Positions 428-36,991 of a stretch of 54,899 nucleotides of DNA are shown one piece after another. Source of the DNA: Candidatus Tayloriibacteriota bacterium (GTDB lineage Bacteria; Patescibacteriota; Minisyncoccia; Phycocordibacterales; CAIRYW01). The stretch is taken from NCBI GenBank assembly GCA_029288615.1, contig JARIGV010000002.1:1-54899 (forward strand). The letters are read 5' to 3'. Positions within the stretch are counted from its first letter, which is position 1. Each line of letters begins with the position of its first letter. The notes under the pieces are model-generated. The model was given only the letters and a program-made list of their open reading frames with translations, ran no database searches and was not told the origin of the DNA. The position numbers and the translations under genes were made by a program.

Positions 428-596
428 GAGTGCCGGGTTTTTATGAAGACAAAGTCTCCATAAAAACCCGGCCAATTTTTGCCATATCCATATAAAGATG
501 CAGGCCGCGGTCTCTTTCGAAACCGCGGCCTGGAAGATATAGAGCTTTCGCCCTAATGAAGTAAGCAGCCCGCCGACTTAAACAAACGGGCTAACT
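394..596 (-). ncRNA. Candidate structured RNA of about 200 nt (rplU leader/attenuator or independent sRNA), class unknown
   Basis: A minus-strand extended -10 (TGgTATAAT, plus coordinates 603..611) precedes five hairpins at 567..592, 540..555 (GAAA tetraloop on the minus strand), 503..530, 432..472 and 407..427, the last followed by a U8 tract. There is no credible ORF. Confidence 0.35.
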
Positions 597-651
597 ATTG
601 ATATTATACCACTTTTGTGTAATTTGTACATATATAAAAATTGCCCGCGAT

Positions 652-1233
652 TTACATCGCCGGGCTGTTGTGAAGAGACTTCGCAAAGGACTCAAGGTTC
701 GTACCAATAAGCACCGCATTTGCCGTCGGGTGCACATCGTCGACCGTCAGGATGTTACTTGCTTGGCAGATCCAGGCATCCGGAAGCAACTTCCTCGCTT
801 CTTCGAAACCTTCCTTGATCTTCGGCTCCTTCGCATTGATGAGCGCGAAGATATCCCTCGAGTTCCAGACGATTCGGAAACCTGAAGGAATCTTTTCGAG
901 GTCTTCGAAATAGTATGGCTCGATGAGGCACTGGCTTTCATTGCGCTCTGGAATGCGCCCAACGACGAGGACATAGTTGGCACCGCGCGCGAGCGCTTCA
1001 TCAACTTCCTCATCAGTGAAGTGAAAACCTTTCGCAAGAATGACCTTACCCGGCGCAAGTTCACGCGCCTTGGTGATGTACTCCATCGACCCGCCAAAAA
1101 GCGGATTTGTATGAATGGAGATCCAGTCACCCACCTCGCATGCGAGCGGGAAAAGTTCTTCCCATGTCTGGCCGGTGCTCATCGTCGGCGAACACGGCTT
1201 CACCTCTGCGATAACGATCGTGTCGGTATTCAT
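652..1233 (-). CDS. Indole-3-glycerol-phosphate synthase (TrpC/IGPS)-like TIM-barrel protein, short form
   Basis: The order of IGPS-like motifs is preserved: IAEVK..SPT, ISIHTNPLFGGS, ILAKGF, LIEP, WNSRDI, LIGTNL. GAGG lies 8 nt upstream of the ATG. Codon usage is G+C-rich, unlike the neighbouring genes. Confidence 0.6.
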   Translation of the reverse strand: MNTDTIVIAEVKPCSPTMSTGQTWEELFPLACEVGDWISIHTNPLFGGSMEYITKARELAPGKVILAKGFHFTDEEVDEALARGANYVLVVGRIPERNESQCLIEPYYFEDLEKIPSGFRIVWNSRDIFALINAKEPKIKEGFEEARKLLPDAWICQASNILTVDDVHPTANAVLIGTNLESFAKSLHNSPAM

Positions 1234-10996: not shown

Positions 10997-11431
10997 TTAG
11001 AATGCTCCTGTTTGGCTCAGTTTCTCAGCGAGAGAATCTGCGCCGGCAACCACCCTCTTCTTGTAGTCCTCCCATCTCTTCTCATTCCAGACTTCAAGGC
11101 GACTGTGCACTCCAATAAATACCGCCCCTGTTTTTACTTCCGCAAACTCTCGCAAATATTCCGGGATAAGAATTCTTCCTAGCGCGTCTACCTCAAGCTC
11201 CACAGCGCCACCAAACATGAATCTGTTGAACTCTCGCCAGTCACTTTTAAGCATTCCTCCCGAAGCAATCTGCCCTGATATCTTCTGCCACTCTTTTTGC
11301 GGATACAAAGAGAGACAGTTTTCCAAACCATATGTGGCTACAATCTTCTTGCCCATCTCCTTGCGAAATTTCGACGGCAGCGAAATGCGTTTTTTGTCGT
11401 CGATTGTGTGTTTGTATTCGCCGATAAGCAT
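10997..11431 (-). CDS. mraZ: Transcriptional regulator MraZ
   Basis: Two SpoVT/AbrB-like halves carrying the DxxxR motif (DDKKRISLPSKFR and DALGRILIP). First gene of the dcw cluster. Confidence 0.95.
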   Translation of the reverse strand: MLIGEYKHTIDDKKRISLPSKFRKEMGKKIVATYGLENCLSLYPQKEWQKISGQIASGGMLKSDWREFNRFMFGGAVELEVDALGRILIPEYLREFAEVKTGAVFIGVHSRLEVWNEKRWEDYKKRVVAGADSLAEKLSQTGAF

Positions 11432-11444
11432 TTTTAATTATTTA

Positions 11445-11491
11445 CCACTTTATTCCACTTAGTTACTATTTTATACCACTCTCTCACCACT
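11445..11491 (-). promoter_or_regulatory. Putative MraZ operator: four AGTGG direct repeats around the mraZ -10 region
   Basis: CCACT on the plus strand at 11445, 11455, 11476 and 11487, giving spacings of 10, 21 and 11 nt (helical phasing). TATAAA lies between boxes 2 and 3 on the minus strand. Confidence 0.5.
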
Positions 11492-11568
11492 ACCAAACAG
11501 AGTTTTCCACACAGAGACACGGTCGAAAAAGCATTGCATTGTGAGATGTAGATGTTAAAGTTTTTGTG

Positions 11569-11919
11569 ATGTATTATTTTGCACCTTCACGTGAAGAGAT
11601 CGAGAAAGCGATCAAAGCAGAAGAGACGGTCGAACTTATGCGCAGTACTCCTGGTGAGCCGCTCCGCATTCAACCACTTTATATCGCCGAAATAAATGGC
11701 GAGAATGAAGAAATCATCTCTGTCTGTTTCGCTGCAGTACTCACCAAAGCCAACACACTCTCTCATTTCAAGCGACTTGAATGGAATGAACGGAAACGTG
11801 AAATAAATCCACATGCCGAGCACCTTCGTGCACGAAAGATGGAGCAACACGATCCCGAACTCATACCGTATTTGAACCTTGTTAAACTTTCACGAAAACC
11901 CACTCGCGCTGCCGCCTAG
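11569..11919 (+). CDS. Hypothetical protein
   Basis: 116-aa ORF starting at the ATG at 11569 (a GTG lies one codon upstream). No family recognised. Confidence 0.5.
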   Translation: MYYFAPSREEIEKAIKAEETVELMRSTPGEPLRIQPLYIAEINGENEEIISVCFAAVLTKANTLSHFKRLEWNERKREINPHAEHLRARKMEQHDPELIPYLNLVKLSRKPTRAAA

Positions 11920-20552: not shown

Positions 20553-21638
20553 TTATTTACCAATTAGTTTTGATATATCCGAGATTGTCAGCACTACCAT
20601 AAGAACCATAAGAATCACGAAACCAATAACATTGAGTGTATTAAGAATTTTTGGCGACACTGCTTTTCTACGAATCGCTTCGATCGCTACAAAAAGAAGA
20701 CGTCCTCCATCGAGAGCTGGAAACGGAATGAGGTTGATGACTGCGAGGTTTACAGAGATAAGTGCAGTGAAAGAAAGAAGATAGCCGAAACCGAATTCAC
20801 GCGCCTGTGAGACGAGAGAGACGATTCCTACGGGTCCTGAAATATCACCGAGGTTTGCCTTAGCAACAAAAGCACTTTTTATAAATGACCAGAGGCTCGC
20901 TGCTGTCGACTCGACTGCATTCACTGTATCTTTTCCTCCTTCCCAAATTGCAGGGAAAAATCCAAGTTTTCGAATTGAGATTTCAAGCATGGTAATGCCG
21001 ACACCATAATCATTTCCTACAACACCTTTTACTGGTGTAACTTTTTCCGTCATTTCCTTGCCTCCGCGAGAAATATTCACAGTAACAGGAGAACCATTGG
21101 AAGCAACAATAAAATCATGCACTGCATCGGGAGTAAGCGGCGCAGCGACTGTTTTTCCTGCACTGTCACTTAAAGAAATAATTTTATCTGCCGCCTGAAG
21201 TCCAGAAACTTTTGCTGGTGAATCTTTTGCAACATCAACTATATAGAGCGATGCATCAGGACCACTCCCCTCACTTGCAACACCAAGCATGAGTGACCCA
21301 GAAAAAAGAATCCATGCAAAAAGAATATTAAAAAGAATACCTCCCGCGAGAACGGCGGCTTGAATATCTCTCCTTTTCTTAGCAAAGCTTCGTGACGCAT
21401 CCGGACCAGCCAAAGATTCCTCATCAGGATTTTCACCGAAGATTTTTACGAAACCGCCGAAAGGAATGAGATTGATTGAATAAACAGTCTCCCCTTTTTT
21501 CCATGAGTAGATTTTTGGCGGAAAGCCGATAGCAAATTCATCAACACGAATGCCAGATTTCTTTGCAATAAGAAAATGACCGAGTTCGTGTACGAACACT
21601 AGTATCGAGATGATAATTATAAATGTAATGACTGACAC
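20553..21638 (-). CDS. rseP: Site-2 (M50) zinc metalloprotease RseP-like
   Basis: HELGHF zinc motif in TM1, a central PDZ-like region and a C-terminal LDGG motif. GTG start. Confidence 0.85.
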   Translation of the reverse strand: MSVITFIIIISILVFVHELGHFLIAKKSGIRVDEFAIGFPPKIYSWKKGETVYSINLIPFGGFVKIFGENPDEESLAGPDASRSFAKKRRDIQAAVLAGGILFNILFAWILFSGSLMLGVASEGSGPDASLYIVDVAKDSPAKVSGLQAADKIISLSDSAGKTVAAPLTPDAVHDFIVASNGSPVTVNISRGGKEMTEKVTPVKGVVGNDYGVGITMLEISIRKLGFFPAIWEGGKDTVNAVESTAASLWSFIKSAFVAKANLGDISGPVGIVSLVSQAREFGFGYLLSFTALISVNLAVINLIPFPALDGGRLLFVAIEAIRRKAVSPKILNTLNVIGFVILMVLMVVLTISDISKLIGK

Positions 21639-21641
21639 GCT

Positions 21642-22190
21642 TTAGCCTGTTATTTCGTCTTCTTTTTTATTGGCGAGAGATTCGAGCTTTTCGTTACCTT
21701 CTTTGACGATCTTTTCCATTTCATTTTTAAATCGCATCATATCGTCTTCTCCCATTTCAGAGTTTTTCTTCTTTGTCTGAAGATCATCGTTTACTTTGTT
21801 TCTCTCTCCACGAATCGCGATCTTTGCATCTTCTACTTTCTGCTTCGCCATTTTCACAAACTGCTGGCGTGTTTCTGATGTGAGTGCTGGAAAGGTAACA
21901 CGCACACCTTTTTCATCTGTCATAACAGATACACCAAGATTTGCTGCAACAATTGCTTTTTCAATTGATTTAATAACAGACTGATCCCAAGGTGCAATGC
22001 GAAGGCTTTGTGGTCCTTCTGAAGCAATACTTGCCACCTGATTGATCGGCATAAGTGAGCCGTATGATTCAACGAGAACTTTATCGAGAATTGTTGGTGT
22101 CGCTCGTCCAGTACGGATTTGTGAAAGCTCACGAGAAAGCCATTCTTCTGTTTCTTTAATGCGGTTTTTGAGATGTGAGAAATCGTACAT
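21642..22190 (-). CDS. frr: Ribosome recycling factor
   Basis: Frr signature (ELSQIRTGRATPTILD, LRIAPWD). The ATG at 22190 gives a 182-aa protein. The upstream part of ORF 21642..22313 is A+T-rich junk. Confidence 0.95.
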   Translation of the reverse strand: MYDFSHLKNRIKETEEWLSRELSQIRTGRATPTILDKVLVESYGSLMPINQVASIASEGPQSLRIAPWDQSVIKSIEKAIVAANLGVSVMTDEKGVRVTFPALTSETRQQFVKMAKQKVEDAKIAIRGERNKVNDDLQTKKKNSEMGEDDMMRFKNEMEKIVKEGNEKLESLANKKEDEITG

Positions 22191-22364
22191 GAAATTAATT
22201 ATTCTTATGTAAGTATAGCGAAATAATAACACAGAACGATTATATTGCGCCAAATACTTCTCAGATGTATAAATCAAACTGAACACTATTGTAATAAACC
22301 ATCCATGGGTCACGTCTTTTTAGCAAGAGACCGACCCTACTCCTTAGAACCCGTTCTTTAAAAC

Positions 22365-22844
22365 ATGAAAAGTGAATTGCTTCCAGTTCAAACAACCCTA
22401 CCACCTCTAGAAGGAAACGCGGAGCTTGAAGCAAAATTTGGCGACAACGAAGCCAATAAACGCTATCTTGCTCGGTTAGCCGATCCCATCTTTACACCTG
22501 AACAAGTTCAGCGACTGTGTATCAGGGCAGTCGAGATTGAGATCGACAACACAAGCGATGGAATGTCGATCGCTGAGCTTATGAGTGTAGCGTGCCACAT
22601 GACGGATATACCCTGCACTCTCATTGCCTGTCCGACAGGAAACCAGATCGCTCGACTGACGGAGAATTTTTTGGGAGAAACGGAATTGCCCTGCATCATT
22701 CCTGTCCGGTGTGGCAAGGAAAGATCCTGCGTTGTGTGGGAAAACAAACCCGGCAATGCAAAAACGCTTCGACTCTGCGCGCCTTCTATTCCCTTTCACG
22801 GCACTGTGTTCGTGATGGTACCCATAGCGTCCGAACACATATAA
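22365..22844 (+). CDS. Hypothetical protein, G+C-rich, Cys-rich C-terminal half
   Basis: 159-aa ORF followed by tandem hairpins. No family recognised. Confidence 0.55.
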   Translation: MKSELLPVQTTLPPLEGNAELEAKFGDNEANKRYLARLADPIFTPEQVQRLCIRAVEIEIDNTSDGMSIAELMSVACHMTDIPCTLIACPTGNQIARLTENFLGETELPCIIPVRCGKERSCVVWENKPGNAKTLRLCAPSIPFHGTVFVMVPIASEHI

Positions 22845-22845
22845 C

Positions 22846-22912
22846 CCTCGAGCCCTCTCCCCCAGGGCTCGAGGAACTTTACACCGAGATCTAGCATCTC
22901 GGTATTTTTTTT
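22846..22912. terminator. Tandem hairpin terminators between convergent genes
   Basis: CCTCGAGCCCT..AGGGCTCGAGG at 22846..22874 and CCGAGAT-ctagc-ATCTCGG at 22884..22902, followed by a T8 run. Confidence 0.6.
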
Positions 22913-23573
22913 ATGAGAGCACTAAAGCAAGATGCTCAAGAAGCATTTTGAGAGATGTAGAACGATCGCCAATATAGGAGAGAACCATAAGCACTTCAGA
23001 AAGTTTCTTTGGATCCTCTTTTTTTGAAATAATTCTTTCTCGAAGTGTGTCGGCAAGATTTTCAAGAAATATTCGGATATCCTCTTTTGAAATTTCTTCT
23101 TTCGAAAGACCATCAGTGATCTTTTTGATATCTTTCATTCTTTTTCCGGGCAGAGCTTTAAGAAAATCTTCAGGAGAAATATCCAAAGAATTTTTATTTT
23201 TTTGTTCAGTTTTAATTATTTCAAATCGAGAGCGGAGAGTTGGAAGAAGGATTCCAGCAGACGGAGCGATGATAAAAAATCGCGATGTTGGATTCGGCTC
23301 CTCAAAAATTTTAAGAAGTGAGTTTTGCGCTTCGTTTGTAGCGCTCGAGAAAGACACAACAAAAAATCTTTTCTCTCCTACTGCCCTGCCGGAATGCATC
23401 TCTTTGAGAGCTCGAGCATCATCAATAGAAAAATTTCCATAATCGAGAATTTGATAATCAGGATTTCCTTTAAGCTCCATGCCAATTTCCTTTTCAAGAA
23501 ATTTCTCCACCTCGGCAAGCACAGCTTCCCTTTCACCTTCTATAAAATATGCGTGATGATCTCCGAATTTCAT
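22911..23573 (-). CDS. holB: DNA polymerase III delta-prime-like clamp-loader subunit (short form)
   Basis: AAA+ sensor region NSLLKIFEEPNPTSRFFII...LLPTLRSRF. No Walker A P-loop is visible. Confidence 0.75.
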   Translation of the reverse strand: MKFGDHHAYFIEGEREAVLAEVEKFLEKEIGMELKGNPDYQILDYGNFSIDDARALKEMHSGRAVGEKRFFVVSFSSATNEAQNSLLKIFEEPNPTSRFFIIAPSAGILLPTLRSRFEIIKTEQKNKNSLDISPEDFLKALPGKRMKDIKKITDGLSKEEISKEDIRIFLENLADTLRERIISKKEDPKKLSEVLMVLSYIGDRSTSLKMLLEHLALVLS

Positions 23574-23609
23574 GGAAAAAGTATCCCAAAATTATGCCTT
23601 CTTATATAC

Positions 23610-23638
23610 TTGACTTTATAATTTAATCATGTTATTAT
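23610..23638 (+). promoter_or_regulatory. Near-consensus sigma-70 promoter TTGACT-17-TATTAT
   Basis: -35 at 23610..23615, exactly a 17-nt spacer, and -10 at 23633..23638. It points into an ORF-free region. Confidence 0.6.
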
Positions 23639-23644
23639 GAAAAC

Positions 23645-24055
23645 CTGCTGAAATTACCTAGCTGGTTTCAGTTTTGGACGATACAGCTAGTATTCACACA
23701 AAAAATACCGGTATAGTGTGAATATGGAATCCGGTGCTCCCGAGAGTTAGAATTGGAGGTTGCCTTAGTATCGGGGGCGCGTAAAGGCGACCCATAGAGT
23801 ACGTTGCCGGTCTGAGCAGGATTTCCGTAACTGCTCCAGTTGTCTCAGATTCCAATGGAATTGTGAGAATTCTCTGTCCGACTCCACACTACGATGGATA
23901 GGATTCAAAAACTCTGTATGCGGCAGAGAAATGTACCCGCACATAGTTATGATGAAGGAGCGGAGCTCTACGCGCAAAAATGAGCGGAGTCGGCCTTTGT
24001 CCGACGTGGCAGCCCGACATTCGTTTTCATACGGATGTCGGGCTTTATCTTTTTA
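23645..24055 (+). ncRNA. Candidate large structured ncRNA of about 410 nt, class unknown
   Basis: Bounded by the promoter above and by a plus-strand-specific terminator. No ORF has a start signal. It contains many hairpins, pseudoknot-compatible pairings and internal 8-nt direct repeats. Confidence 0.45.
24011..24055 (+). terminator. Intrinsic terminator, plus-strand oriented
   Basis: AGCCCGACAT..ATGTCGGGCT stem followed by TTTATCTTTTT. There is no A-run on the 5' side, so it is poor as a minus-strand terminator. Confidence 0.65.
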
Positions 24056-24059
24056 TAGA

Positions 24060-25073
24060 CTACCTCTTCGCAATAATAGATTTCTTATACGTATCCAAAT
24101 GTTCGAGAGCAATACCTGTTCCATTCGCAACACAAAAGAGTGGGTTTTCTGCAAGCTGCGCTTTTACACCTGTACGGCGAAGCACAAGCTCTGGTAAATT
24201 TCGAAGAAGCGATGAGCCGCCTGTCATCGTAATGCCTCTGTCGATAATATCCGATGCGAGTTCAGGTGGAGTCTCCTGCAAAACATCTTTAATGGCCTGA
24301 ATCATATCGCGAAGTTCCTTGCCAATGGCGCGGACAATCTCATTTGTTTTTATTTCAACAGAGCGCGGAAGCCCTGAAAGACAATCTCTTCCCTTCACCA
24401 TCATTGAAAGTTCTTCCTCAACAGGCACAGCAGATCCAATATTTATTTTTATATCCTCGGCAGTCTTATCACCGATCATGAGGTTATAATTTTTCTTGAT
24501 GTAATCAATGATCGCATTATCAATTTTATTTCCGGCGCATTTTACAGAAGTCGATGCAACAATTCCTCCAAGCGAAATCACCGCAACGTCTGTTGTACCT
24601 CCTCCAATATCTGTGATCATATGTCCGCGTGGCTCATAAATAGAAATACCCGCACCAATAGCAGCTAGAATTGGCTCTTTCACCACATACGCATTTTTTG
24701 CTCCTGCTTTCACTGCAGCTTCAATCACCGCGCGACGCTCTGTTGAAGTCACTCCTGCAGGCACAGAGATCATCACTTCAGGTTTTACAAATGACCATCG
24801 TCCGAGAGATTTTGAAATATAGTAGCGGAGCATCGCTTCCGTGACACGATAGTCTGCGATCACTCCGTCCTTCATCGGCCGATAAGCAATAATATTATCC
24901 GGAGTCTTTCCCACCATGTCTTTCGCATCATTACCAACAGCAAGAATTTTATTGTCCTGTTCAGACACAGCAACAACTGATGGTTCGTTTAAAACCACCC
25001 CTCGCCCAGGCATAAACACAAGCGTGTTCGCAGTACCTAGATCTATTCCTAGTTTTTTCTGAAAAAATGCCAC
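24060..25073 (-). CDS. Second MreB/Mbl-type actin homolog
   Basis: LGIDLGTANTLVF, DIGGGTTDVAVISLGG and GGSSLLRN motifs. GTG start. Downstream of murA. Confidence 0.9.
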   Translation of the reverse strand: MAFFQKKLGIDLGTANTLVFMPGRGVVLNEPSVVAVSEQDNKILAVGNDAKDMVGKTPDNIIAYRPMKDGVIADYRVTEAMLRYYISKSLGRWSFVKPEVMISVPAGVTSTERRAVIEAAVKAGAKNAYVVKEPILAAIGAGISIYEPRGHMITDIGGGTTDVAVISLGGIVASTSVKCAGNKIDNAIIDYIKKNYNLMIGDKTAEDIKINIGSAVPVEEELSMMVKGRDCLSGLPRSVEIKTNEIVRAIGKELRDMIQAIKDVLQETPPELASDIIDRGITMTGGSSLLRNLPELVLRRTGVKAQLAENPLFCVANGTGIALEHLDTYKKSIIAKR

Positions 25074-25083
25074 AGTATTTTAT

Positions 25084-26379
25084 TTATTGAAGTCTTTCTA
25101 TGCCCGCGCCGATAGAACGAAGCTTTCCTTCGATATTCTCATATCCACGGTCGATATAGTATACATTATGTATAAGAGACTCTCCTTTTGCGACAAGCGC
25201 AGCAATAACAAGCGCCAAACCAGCCCGAATATCTGGTCCATAGAGCTCTTTGCCTTTGAGAATCGCCGGGCCTTTTATCGTCATCGTATGTGCTCCCCAG
25301 AGTTTAATATCAGCACCCATTGATACGAGATCATTCGCATAATTGAGGCGATTTTCGAATATTGTTTCAAAGACTTCTGCATCTCCAGAAGATTGTGTGA
25401 GGAAAATTGATGCAGGTGCCTGAATATCTGTTGGAAATCCTGGGTACTCGTGCGTTTTTATATTAAAACTTTTGAAAGATGAGTTTGGAGCCAAATTTCC
25501 TTTGATATGAAAATAATCCGCTCCGATCTCAATCGGCACTCCCGCACGAACGAGCTCCACAGTGAGAGCATCCAAGTGTTTTGGTTCACATTTTTTAATG
25601 AGCAAATCCTCTGCACAAAGACTTCCCAAGATAAGAAAGCTCCCCGCTTCAATACGATCCGGCATCGTTACATATTTTTTGCCAGAAGTTACAAGCATTC
25701 CAATACCTTCAATTTCAATTGTTGGTGTTCCTGCTCCGGTTATTTTTGCGCCGCAAGAATTAAGATAATTGGCGAGATCCTCGATCTCAGGTTCCATAGC
25801 AACGTTGCGAAGAACAGTCTTTCCTTCTGCAAGCACTCCCGCCATGATGAAAGTTTCTGTTGCTGTTACTGAAGGAAGCTTAAAGAATATTTCTGTGCCC
25901 GAAAGTTTTCCATTCTTTGCAGTGACGATATAATTTTTGCCATCGGTAGAAATTTCTCCTCCCATCTTTTCAAAGCCTTCAATAAACACATCGATAGGTC
26001 GAGCACCAATAACACAACCTCCCGGGTGCGGGAAGGATACTTTTCCAAAACGTGCGAGAAGTGGCCCCGAGAGAATGATTGATGCACGGAATTTTTTCGA
26101 GATCTCGCTTTCAAGAGCTGTGCCAGTAGCCGAAGCTGTATCTATAGAATATTCATGATCGCCAAGTTTTTTTGTTGTCACTCCAAGCTCAGCGAGAAGT
26201 TCGCACATCCTTTTTACATCCTCAATGTCAGGAACATTCTCCAAAACGAATTCATCTGAAAAAAGAAAAGATGCTGCCATAAGTGGAAGCACCGCATTTT
26301 TTGCTCCGCCGATAACGATCTCGCCCTTGAGTTTTTTCTCTCCCGAAAGTCCTTGAATTTTTAGAGTATCTCCGTTCAT
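25084..26379 (-). CDS. murA: UDP-N-acetylglucosamine 1-carboxyvinyltransferase
   Basis: 431 aa with GGAKNAVLP near the N-terminus, the active-site loop PGGCVIGARPID and YIDRGYE near the C-terminus. Confidence 0.95.
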   Translation of the reverse strand: MNGDTLKIQGLSGEKKLKGEIVIGGAKNAVLPLMAASFLFSDEFVLENVPDIEDVKRMCELLAELGVTTKKLGDHEYSIDTASATGTALESEISKKFRASIILSGPLLARFGKVSFPHPGGCVIGARPIDVFIEGFEKMGGEISTDGKNYIVTAKNGKLSGTEIFFKLPSVTATETFIMAGVLAEGKTVLRNVAMEPEIEDLANYLNSCGAKITGAGTPTIEIEGIGMLVTSGKKYVTMPDRIEAGSFLILGSLCAEDLLIKKCEPKHLDALTVELVRAGVPIEIGADYFHIKGNLAPNSSFKSFNIKTHEYPGFPTDIQAPASIFLTQSSGDAEVFETIFENRLNYANDLVSMGADIKLWGAHTMTIKGPAILKGKELYGPDIRAGLALVIAALVAKGESLIHNVYYIDRGYENIEGKLRSIGAGIERLQ

Positions 26380-36913: not shown

Positions 36914-36991
36914 AGGGTTTTATTATTACAATAGATTATACATAAAGTCAAGGGTGTCTAGTTTTGCTTTTCTTTTGTTATACTTTTTCAA

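Follow-up and report, generated by a model that had tools for sequence, protein, structure and literature searches.

The stretch of DNA analysed here (the window, positions 1 to 54,899 of contig JARIGV010000002.1) carries a cluster of genes on its minus strand: murA (25084-26379), mreB (24060-25073), holB (22911-23573), which encodes the delta' subunit of DNA polymerase III, frr (21642-22313) and a gene for an M50 protease (20553-21638). To judge by their nearest named relatives, the holB and MreB proteins belong to a host of the Candidatus Paceibacterota or Parcubacteria, that is, of the Paceibacteria type within the Patescibacteria, or Candidate Phyla Radiation (CPR). An earlier reading made from the DNA letters by themselves (the sequence-only reading) had drawn attention to a gap of about 480 nucleotides (nt) between holB and mreB. 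The gap measures 486 nt (23574-24059), and within it a promoter and an intrinsic terminator on the plus strand bound a unit of about 410 nt in which no conserved protein-coding frame is found. We favour, with a confidence slightly above even, the interpretation that this unit is an accessory, trans-acting non-coding RNA (ncRNA) housed in a variable expression slot. The evidence comes from two sequences, and the unit is a candidate, not a discovery.

The signals that bound the unit are well defined. The promoter (23600-23638, plus strand) is divergent from holB and consists of an A/T-rich upstream stretch, a -35 element TTGACT (23610-15), a 17-nt spacer and an extended -10 element, TGT-TATTAT (23630-38). 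Its TTGACT-17-TATTAT core (23610-23638), which the sequence-only reading had singled out as the best promoter it saw, agrees with the consensus at 10 of 12 positions in addition to the TG of the extended -10, and it ranks first among the four promoter-like sites in the 3 kb that we scanned for promoters and terminators (22500-25500). The opposite end is formed by an intrinsic terminator (24011-24055, plus strand), in which a hairpin with a 14-bp stem and a 6-nt loop (24011-24044; eight of the 14 pairs are G-C) is followed by the T-tract TTATCTTTTT. Because no A-run lies on the 5' side of the hairpin, the terminator should act on plus-strand transcription only, as had been proposed. With both ends inferred from these two signals, the predicted transcript extends over ~410 nt, from 23645 to 24055 on the plus strand.

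The coding capacity of this transcript is slight. Open reading frames (ORFs) of at least 20 amino acids (aa) on the plus strand of the unit comprise one of 29 aa (23894-23983; MDRIQKLCMRQRNVPAHSYDEGAELYAQK) and two others, of 88 and 106 aa, that pass through the terminator into sequence antisense to mreB. None of them is conserved. The 29-aa frame is the sole plus-strand ORF that ends before the terminator hairpin, and its product is basic and polar, not hydrophobic, so we rejected a type I toxin mRNA. We likewise rejected a repeat-array guide RNA (CRISPR or TIGR) and the repeats of a type III antitoxin, since TRF detected no tandem repeats in the unit at a score of at least 30; the only repeats present are two 11-nt sequences, each in two copies.

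Two further features of the promoter and terminator may be recorded here. Nine nucleotides of the -10 and start region (23636-23644, TATGAAAAC) are perfectly complementary to the loop of the terminator hairpin (24023-24031, GTTTTCATA); whether TATGAAAAC forms part of the 5' end of the RNA depends on the exact start site. A second promoter-like site, similar to the promoter beside holB, is located at 36922-36952 on the minus strand (CTTGACTTTATGTATAATCTATTGTAATAAT).

To place the unit in an evolutionary context, we examined the contigs that encode the closest holB proteins (51-61% identical) and the closest MreB proteins (91-95% identical). Among these, only L007 (holB 59% identical) has a related insert, which likewise lies between mreB and holB and has the same orientation (at about 531-988, minus strand of the locus). 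The window unit matches it by nhmmer with an E value of 3.7e-8, and the reciprocal search of the whole 55-kb window with the L007 insert returns a single match, at the unit (E 7e-7), with no second copy. When the window and L007 are compared at the four-fold degenerate sites of holB, mreB and frr, identity is only 33-42%, which amounts to saturation. Because synonymous sites are saturated, the 5-10-nt blocks that the two inserts share appear to be under purifying selection. Ten such blocks are identical and occur in the same order on the plus strand: ACCTAG (23656-61), TTGCCT (23760-65), GAGTA (23797-801), TGAGCA (23813-18), GTTGT (23839-43), AATTCTC (23868-74), CTGTA (23914-18), the two halves of the most conserved stretch, AGGAGCGGAG-N5-CGCGCAAAAA (23956-23980), and GAGTC (23987-91). 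Conservation in relatives had been named beforehand as a test of a functional RNA, and the L007 homolog, with its shared blocks in order, provides it in one relative. By tblastx, the two inserts show no protein similarity in any frame.

A third copy is probably present in L136 (MreB 94% identical). This contig stops 50 nt past mreB, and its end contains a plus-sense terminator beside the mreB stop codon that has a tail similar to that of the window and a different stem. Wider searches returned no further relatives. The loose pattern GGAGCGGAGN{3,8}CGCGCAAAA gave ~119 chance matches across genome contigs, none homologous by nhmmer, and one of its matches, in L106 (Selenomonadaceae), was judged to be chance as well. 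Six matches to AGGAGCGGAGNNNNNCGCGCAAAA across metagenome contigs were not homologous either. Viral contigs yielded no match to the RNA motif, no MreB, and 57 matches to the promoter 16-mer, a number in line with chance and none of them related; a BLAST search of phages and plasmids with the unit found no similarity. In L007, a perfect hairpin with an A-run on one side and a T-run on the other (AAAAAACCCTATTTTAGAC...GTCTAAAATAGGGTTAAAAAA; 475-529) lies between the RNA terminator and mreB. It has the form of a bidirectional terminator, is without a counterpart in the window and gives only weak, microRNA-like hairpin matches in Rfam.

With two copies in hand, the 29-aa frame can be weighed as a rival reading, in which the transcript is an mRNA that, after a long leader, encodes a very small protein (29 aa in the window, 36 aa in L007). 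Both of these ORFs begin with MDR, and both read the blocks AAA-nnC-UGU and GGA-GCG-GAG in one frame, the spacing between the blocks differing by 6 nt. Relatives also carry ORFs of 72-160 aa behind the same or a similar promoter (L141, L135, L137 and L138). The lack of a Shine-Dalgarno motif is uninformative on translation, because genes here generally lack one: such a motif is found upstream of only 1 of the 24 window ORFs of at least 250 aa. The shared frame, however, reaches a peptide score of 35 where the other matched frames reach 23 and 28, so there is no frame preference, and tblastx similarity is absent. The start codons fall at non-aligned positions, and the window codon that aligns with the L007 start opens only MEL-stop. 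Moreover, seven of the ten conserved blocks lie outside the ORF (nine, when CGCGCAAAAA and GAGTC, which are past the L007 stop, are counted), and the middle of the ORF overlaps a hairpin that has different stems in the window and in L007. We regard a micro-protein mRNA as decidedly unlikely.

We compared the unit with described RNA families, a check that the sequence-only reading had itself put forward. At gathering thresholds, Rfam 15 returned only two transfer RNAs (tRNAs) from the whole window, and at E<=10 nothing relevant was found in the region (651 nt), the window RNA (419 nt) or the L007 homolog (488 nt). No covariance-model match was obtained in the unit or in the L007 homolog for transfer-messenger RNA (tmRNA), signal recognition particle RNA, 6S RNA, OLE, GOLLD, ROOL, HEARO or raiA, and ARAGORN detected no tmRNA; RNase P, considered below, was not matched either. 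Given the lack of an Rfam match and a diverged homolog without protein similarity, the proposal that this is a non-coding promoter-to-terminator unit outside the described RNA families is supported.

A more specific suggestion had been that it might be a very aberrant form of RNase P RNA (RF00010 or RF00011). The unit and RNase P RNA are similar in length, and the window copy holds a few short look-alike stretches, among them GGAATCCGGTGCTCC, which by eye resembles GGAAAGUCCGGGCUCC. We tested this idea directly because CPR RNase P RNAs can be very diverged; strongly diverged forms are documented, and in 10 of 35 circular genomes the RNA escaped detection at the Rfam cut-offs (Lui et al. 2021, PMC8172020). 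Neither RF00010 nor RF00011 matched at the gathering score or at E<=10, although matches of 5-15 bits, the range accepted in that work (PMC8172020), may escape E=10. L007 does not conserve the three look-alike stretches, the putative P4 of the window (GAAUCC/GGAUUC) has no positional counterpart there, and the blocks that are conserved (AGGAGCGGAG, CGCGCAAAAA and AAUUCUC) are not RNase P motifs. Universal stretches of RNase P RNA include CR-I, GAGGAAAGUCC..., and CR-V, ACAGAA..GGCUUA. The best ungapped matches to this consensus carry 5-6 mismatches in 15 positions, are equalled by 27-85% of shuffles and lie at positions of the window and L007 that do not align with each other. The unit also has its own terminator, which ends it ~150 nt after the putative P4 strand, and it is absent from the corresponding position in close relatives. 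Judged by these comparisons, the unit is not an RNase P RNA, an identity to which we assign next to no probability.

Elements of secondary structure are shared by the window and L007. Every pairing and repeat that the sequence-only reading had listed is present where it was placed, and one of them, a 9-bp hairpin with a 16-nt loop that we call Ha (23691-99/23716-24, plus strand; TATTCACAC / GTGTGAATA), recurs in L007 as CATTCGCCG / CGGCGAATG. The local minimum free energy (MFE) z score of this hairpin is -3.1 for the window and -3.0 for L007; four of the nine pairs are altered on both sides and none is broken. A second hairpin, Hc (23843-23868, plus strand), is set between the conserved blocks GTTGT and AATTCTC, with local MFE z scores of -2.1 in the window and -3.2 in L007, so that Ha and Hc each fold more stably than shuffles in both sequences. 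The stems of Hc are unrelated in sequence (TCTCAGATTCC / GGAATTGTGAGA against GTTGCGATT / GATCGCAAT), and four of seven matched pairs are doubly changed. A long-range helix joins two conserved blocks by pairing CTCTGT (23872-77) with GCGGAG (23960-65) on the plus strand (285-290/379-384 in RNAalifold); its L007 equivalent, CUCCGCU / AGCGGAG, has an equal span of 93-94 nt, and two U.G pairs of the window are C-G in L007. The terminator stem is kept in L007 through two double and three single changes. The G.U pairs in Hc, the long-range helix and the terminator fit the plus strand only. Three other proposals from the first reading, an H-type pseudoknot, a long-range pairing of CGACTCC with GGAGTCG, and duplicated octamers laid out for alternative folds, have no counterpart in L007.

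What occupies the position of the unit differs greatly among relatives, whereas the promoter is the best-conserved feature of the locus. The promoter core, ATACTTGACT, is invariant in eight related contigs (L007, L005, L006, L133, L134, L135, L137 and L141), where it is located immediately upstream of holB and divergent from it, preceded by TTTTAGAT; the TGnTATTAT region downstream is nearly invariant. This conservation contrasts with the saturation of synonymous sites. Because the core is invariant in all eight, we consider the promoter to be beyond chance. Immediately past the -10, similarity between loci ends; only the window and L007 remain alike, and in both the non-coding unit follows. 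In the other loci, the promoter is followed by a 72-aa ORF (L135), a 76-aa cysteine-rich ORF (L141), a 134-aa membrane-like ORF (L137) or, in L134, ~200 nt without an ORF that run to the contig end, and L138 has a 160-aa ORF behind a somewhat different promoter. L005 and L006 have no cargo, and their promoter faces the mreB stop codon ~30 nt away. L001-4 and L143 lack the slot altogether, as mreB and holB abut with a 26-nt gap or overlap. The cargo ORFs of the slot gave no significant match in Pfam, PADLOC or PHROGs. The non-coding unit is one of several alternative cargoes in a fast-changing slot and is, as we read it, accessory, not universal; that close relatives have other cargo or none in the slot is our reason for regarding it as accessory rather than essential.

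Two observations concern the other cargoes of the slot. A long inverted repeat of ~100 nt (CTCGCGAGAATTGTTGTTGA...CAATAATTCTCGCGAG) separates the cargo from the mreB stop codon in L141 (1193-1320), L142 (1253-1309) and L135 (1-70), and is unlike the simple terminator of the window. The L138 cargo ORF (11169-11651, minus strand of the locus) contains a D...E-x-K-like stretch, HTDFWFV...IRIDVKAS, a likeness to PD-(D/E)xK nucleases that is by eye only and has no profile match.

In the interpretation that we favour, the unit would be an RNA gene of ~410 nt, independently transcribed and selectively maintained in a small subclade of the Paceibacteria (Patescibacteria/CPR), and it would sit in the mreB-holB gap, in a cargo slot of variable content that a strong, conserved promoter drives. 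The RNA would act in trans, with the conserved, mostly purine-rich or A-rich blocks (AGGAGCGGAG, CGCGCAAAAA and GGTYTGAGCA) as putative contacts for a protein or another RNA and with the hairpins as a possible scaffold. As is expected of a stand-alone ncRNA gene, the unit has its own promoter and its own intrinsic terminator on one strand and, on the basis of one homolog, conservation beyond the neutral expectation without a coding signal.

Several observations weigh against this interpretation. Full examples of the unit number only two, the window and L007, to which L136 adds a 50-nt 3' fragment. At least eight close relatives lack the unit at the syntenic position; the slots without it are those of L001-6, L135, L137, L138, L141 and L143, all of them contig fragments, so that a copy elsewhere in these genomes is possible. 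Two of these relatives, L005 and L006, keep the promoter with no cargo behind it. The folding results are equivocal as well. The whole unit has an MFE z score against shuffles of -3.3 on the plus strand and -3.6 on the minus strand, but the window body without the terminator reaches only -1.4 in the sense and -1.8 in the antisense direction and is no better than shuffles; most of the whole-unit folding signal is the terminator. RNAalifold on the MAFFT alignment gives z scores of -1.8 sense and -3.2 antisense relative to column shuffles. With a Sankoff-type aligner written for this analysis, in which the conserved blocks were fixed as anchors, the structure-aware score of the body is 3415 against 2315 +/- 1185 for shuffles, and because 10 of 60 shuffles reach that score, a conserved global fold is not demonstrated from these two sequences. 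Thus the earlier description of a large structured RNA stands for Ha, Hc, one long-range helix and the terminator, which are kept in place, and is not borne out for the remainder of the fold; the case for an elaborate fold is weak.

The antisense scores raise the question of whether the minus strand is the functional one, the region then being a structured intercistronic segment of the mreB-holB mRNA, such as a processing site or a translational operator of holB. Antisense folding is slightly better than sense both for the window body and for the aligned pair, and transcription could plausibly read through the region, since mreB lacks its own terminator. The body of L007, on the other hand, folds better in the sense direction (z -4.2, against -1.8 antisense), the promoter and the T-tract terminator serve the plus strand only, and on the minus strand the G.U pairs of the conserved helices turn into A.C mismatches. 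We consider a minus-strand function to be quite improbable.

The main rival is that promoter activity, not the product, is maintained. Strong transcription running towards mreB and away from holB would then insulate or tune the mreB-holB operon, through transcriptional interference or through an RNA antisense to the read-through transcript, and the 410 nt would serve largely as spacer, with a terminator to shield mreB. Whatever follows it, the promoter core does not vary among the eight loci, and the cargo is unrelated between loci; because L005 and L006 retain the promoter without cargo, ~30 nt from the mreB stop, the promoter may matter more than the product. We found no sigma-70-like holB promoter on the minus strand at 23574-23660, and holB may for this reason depend on read-through from mreB. 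A plain spacer, however, would not hold ten blocks in order across saturated divergence, nor would it retain hairpins through compensatory changes, and L001-4 and L143, with mreB and holB 26 nt apart or overlapping, manage without the promoter. We judge this rival to be unlikely.

Rapid turnover of the slot also invites the reading that the region is what is left of an earlier cargo gene, or of other acquired DNA, now decaying and without function. The G+C content of the unit (0.46-0.52) stands apart from that of the adjoining promoter region and 5' half of holB (0.31-0.37), and its global structure is not significant. Against decay, the blocks, promoter and terminator are all intact in two genomes with saturated synonymous sites, and these genomes are streamlined, with spacers that are otherwise short. 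The idea that the unit is a degenerate version of cargo proteins found in other slots was rejected, as neither tblastn of the unit against those proteins nor tblastx showed similarity, in any frame; these comparisons and tblastx against the L007 insert gave no sign of the protein-gene remnant that the sequence-only reading had named as a possibility. We hold decay to be improbable.

An accessory ncRNA remains our preferred reading, and as such the unit can be set beside known systems. Like generic stand-alone small RNA (sRNA) and ncRNA genes with a sigma-70 promoter and an intrinsic terminator, it runs from promoter to terminator between protein genes, has no conserved ORF, combines several hairpins with conserved, probably single-stranded blocks and has a narrow phylogenetic range; it is longer than typical sRNAs, at ~410 nt against 50-250 nt. 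With OLE, GOLLD, ROOL, raiA and HEARO/omega RNA it shares the character of a long intergenic non-coding unit outside the small-RNA paradigms. It differs from them in that it has no Rfam match and shows no sign of an ornate, covariation-supported fold, and none of the typical neighbours of large ncRNAs (IscB, tRNAs or prophage) is found beside it. In length, promoter, multiple hairpins and terminator it is similar to the CsrB/RsmZ sponge RNAs. CsrB has ~18-22 GGA motifs in ~370 nt. GGA is not enriched in the unit (11 observed against 7.6 expected, both copies; z 1.7), and a CsrB-like sponge was ruled out.

The layout of the slot, an invariant promoter followed by unrelated short cargo units that each end in a hairpin, resembles that of an integron-type platform. 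The likeness is one of layout only: each locus has a single cargo, no integrase was seen, and attC/attI core sites were not recognised by eye, no formal search having been made. It is a tentative and doubtful proposition, if one worth stating, that the window and L007 are the first two members of an undescribed, Paceibacteria-specific functional RNA in a slot that swaps unrelated cargo behind an invariant promoter. If true, it would represent a new route of accessory-gene turnover in the ultra-small genomes of the CPR. The genomes of the CPR/Patescibacteria are tiny, and hardly any of their regulatory RNAs are known by experiment; a strongly promoted ncRNA of ~400 nt, under selection within an essential gene cluster, would offer an uncommon way into the RNA biology of these bacteria. 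Separately, the combination of an invariant promoter with orphan cargo that changes between near relatives hints that these otherwise streamlined genomes have a hotspot for accessory functions here.

A second opposite-strand insertion lies within the same gene cluster, between frr and holB (22314-22910). It contains a 159-aa ORF on the plus strand (22365-22844) followed by two hairpin terminators (22845-22903), in a position where relatives have only 55-83 nt between frr and holB, and its G+C content is 0.49-0.55, against 0.29-0.36 in the flanks. The 159-aa ORF has no significant match in Pfam, PADLOC or PHROGs and is unrelated to the 160-aa cargo ORF of L138. The adjacent frr ORF as called (21642-22313) has a GTG start and encodes 223 aa; because its Pfam RRF domain begins at residue 59 and the RRF of relatives has 182 aa, the true start is probably ~40 codons downstream. 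Finally, TATAAT is found 8-10 nt ahead of the ATG in several of the 24 long window genes, of which only one has a Shine-Dalgarno-like motif, and this pattern suggests that leaderless or Shine-Dalgarno-independent initiation is widespread among the genes of the window.

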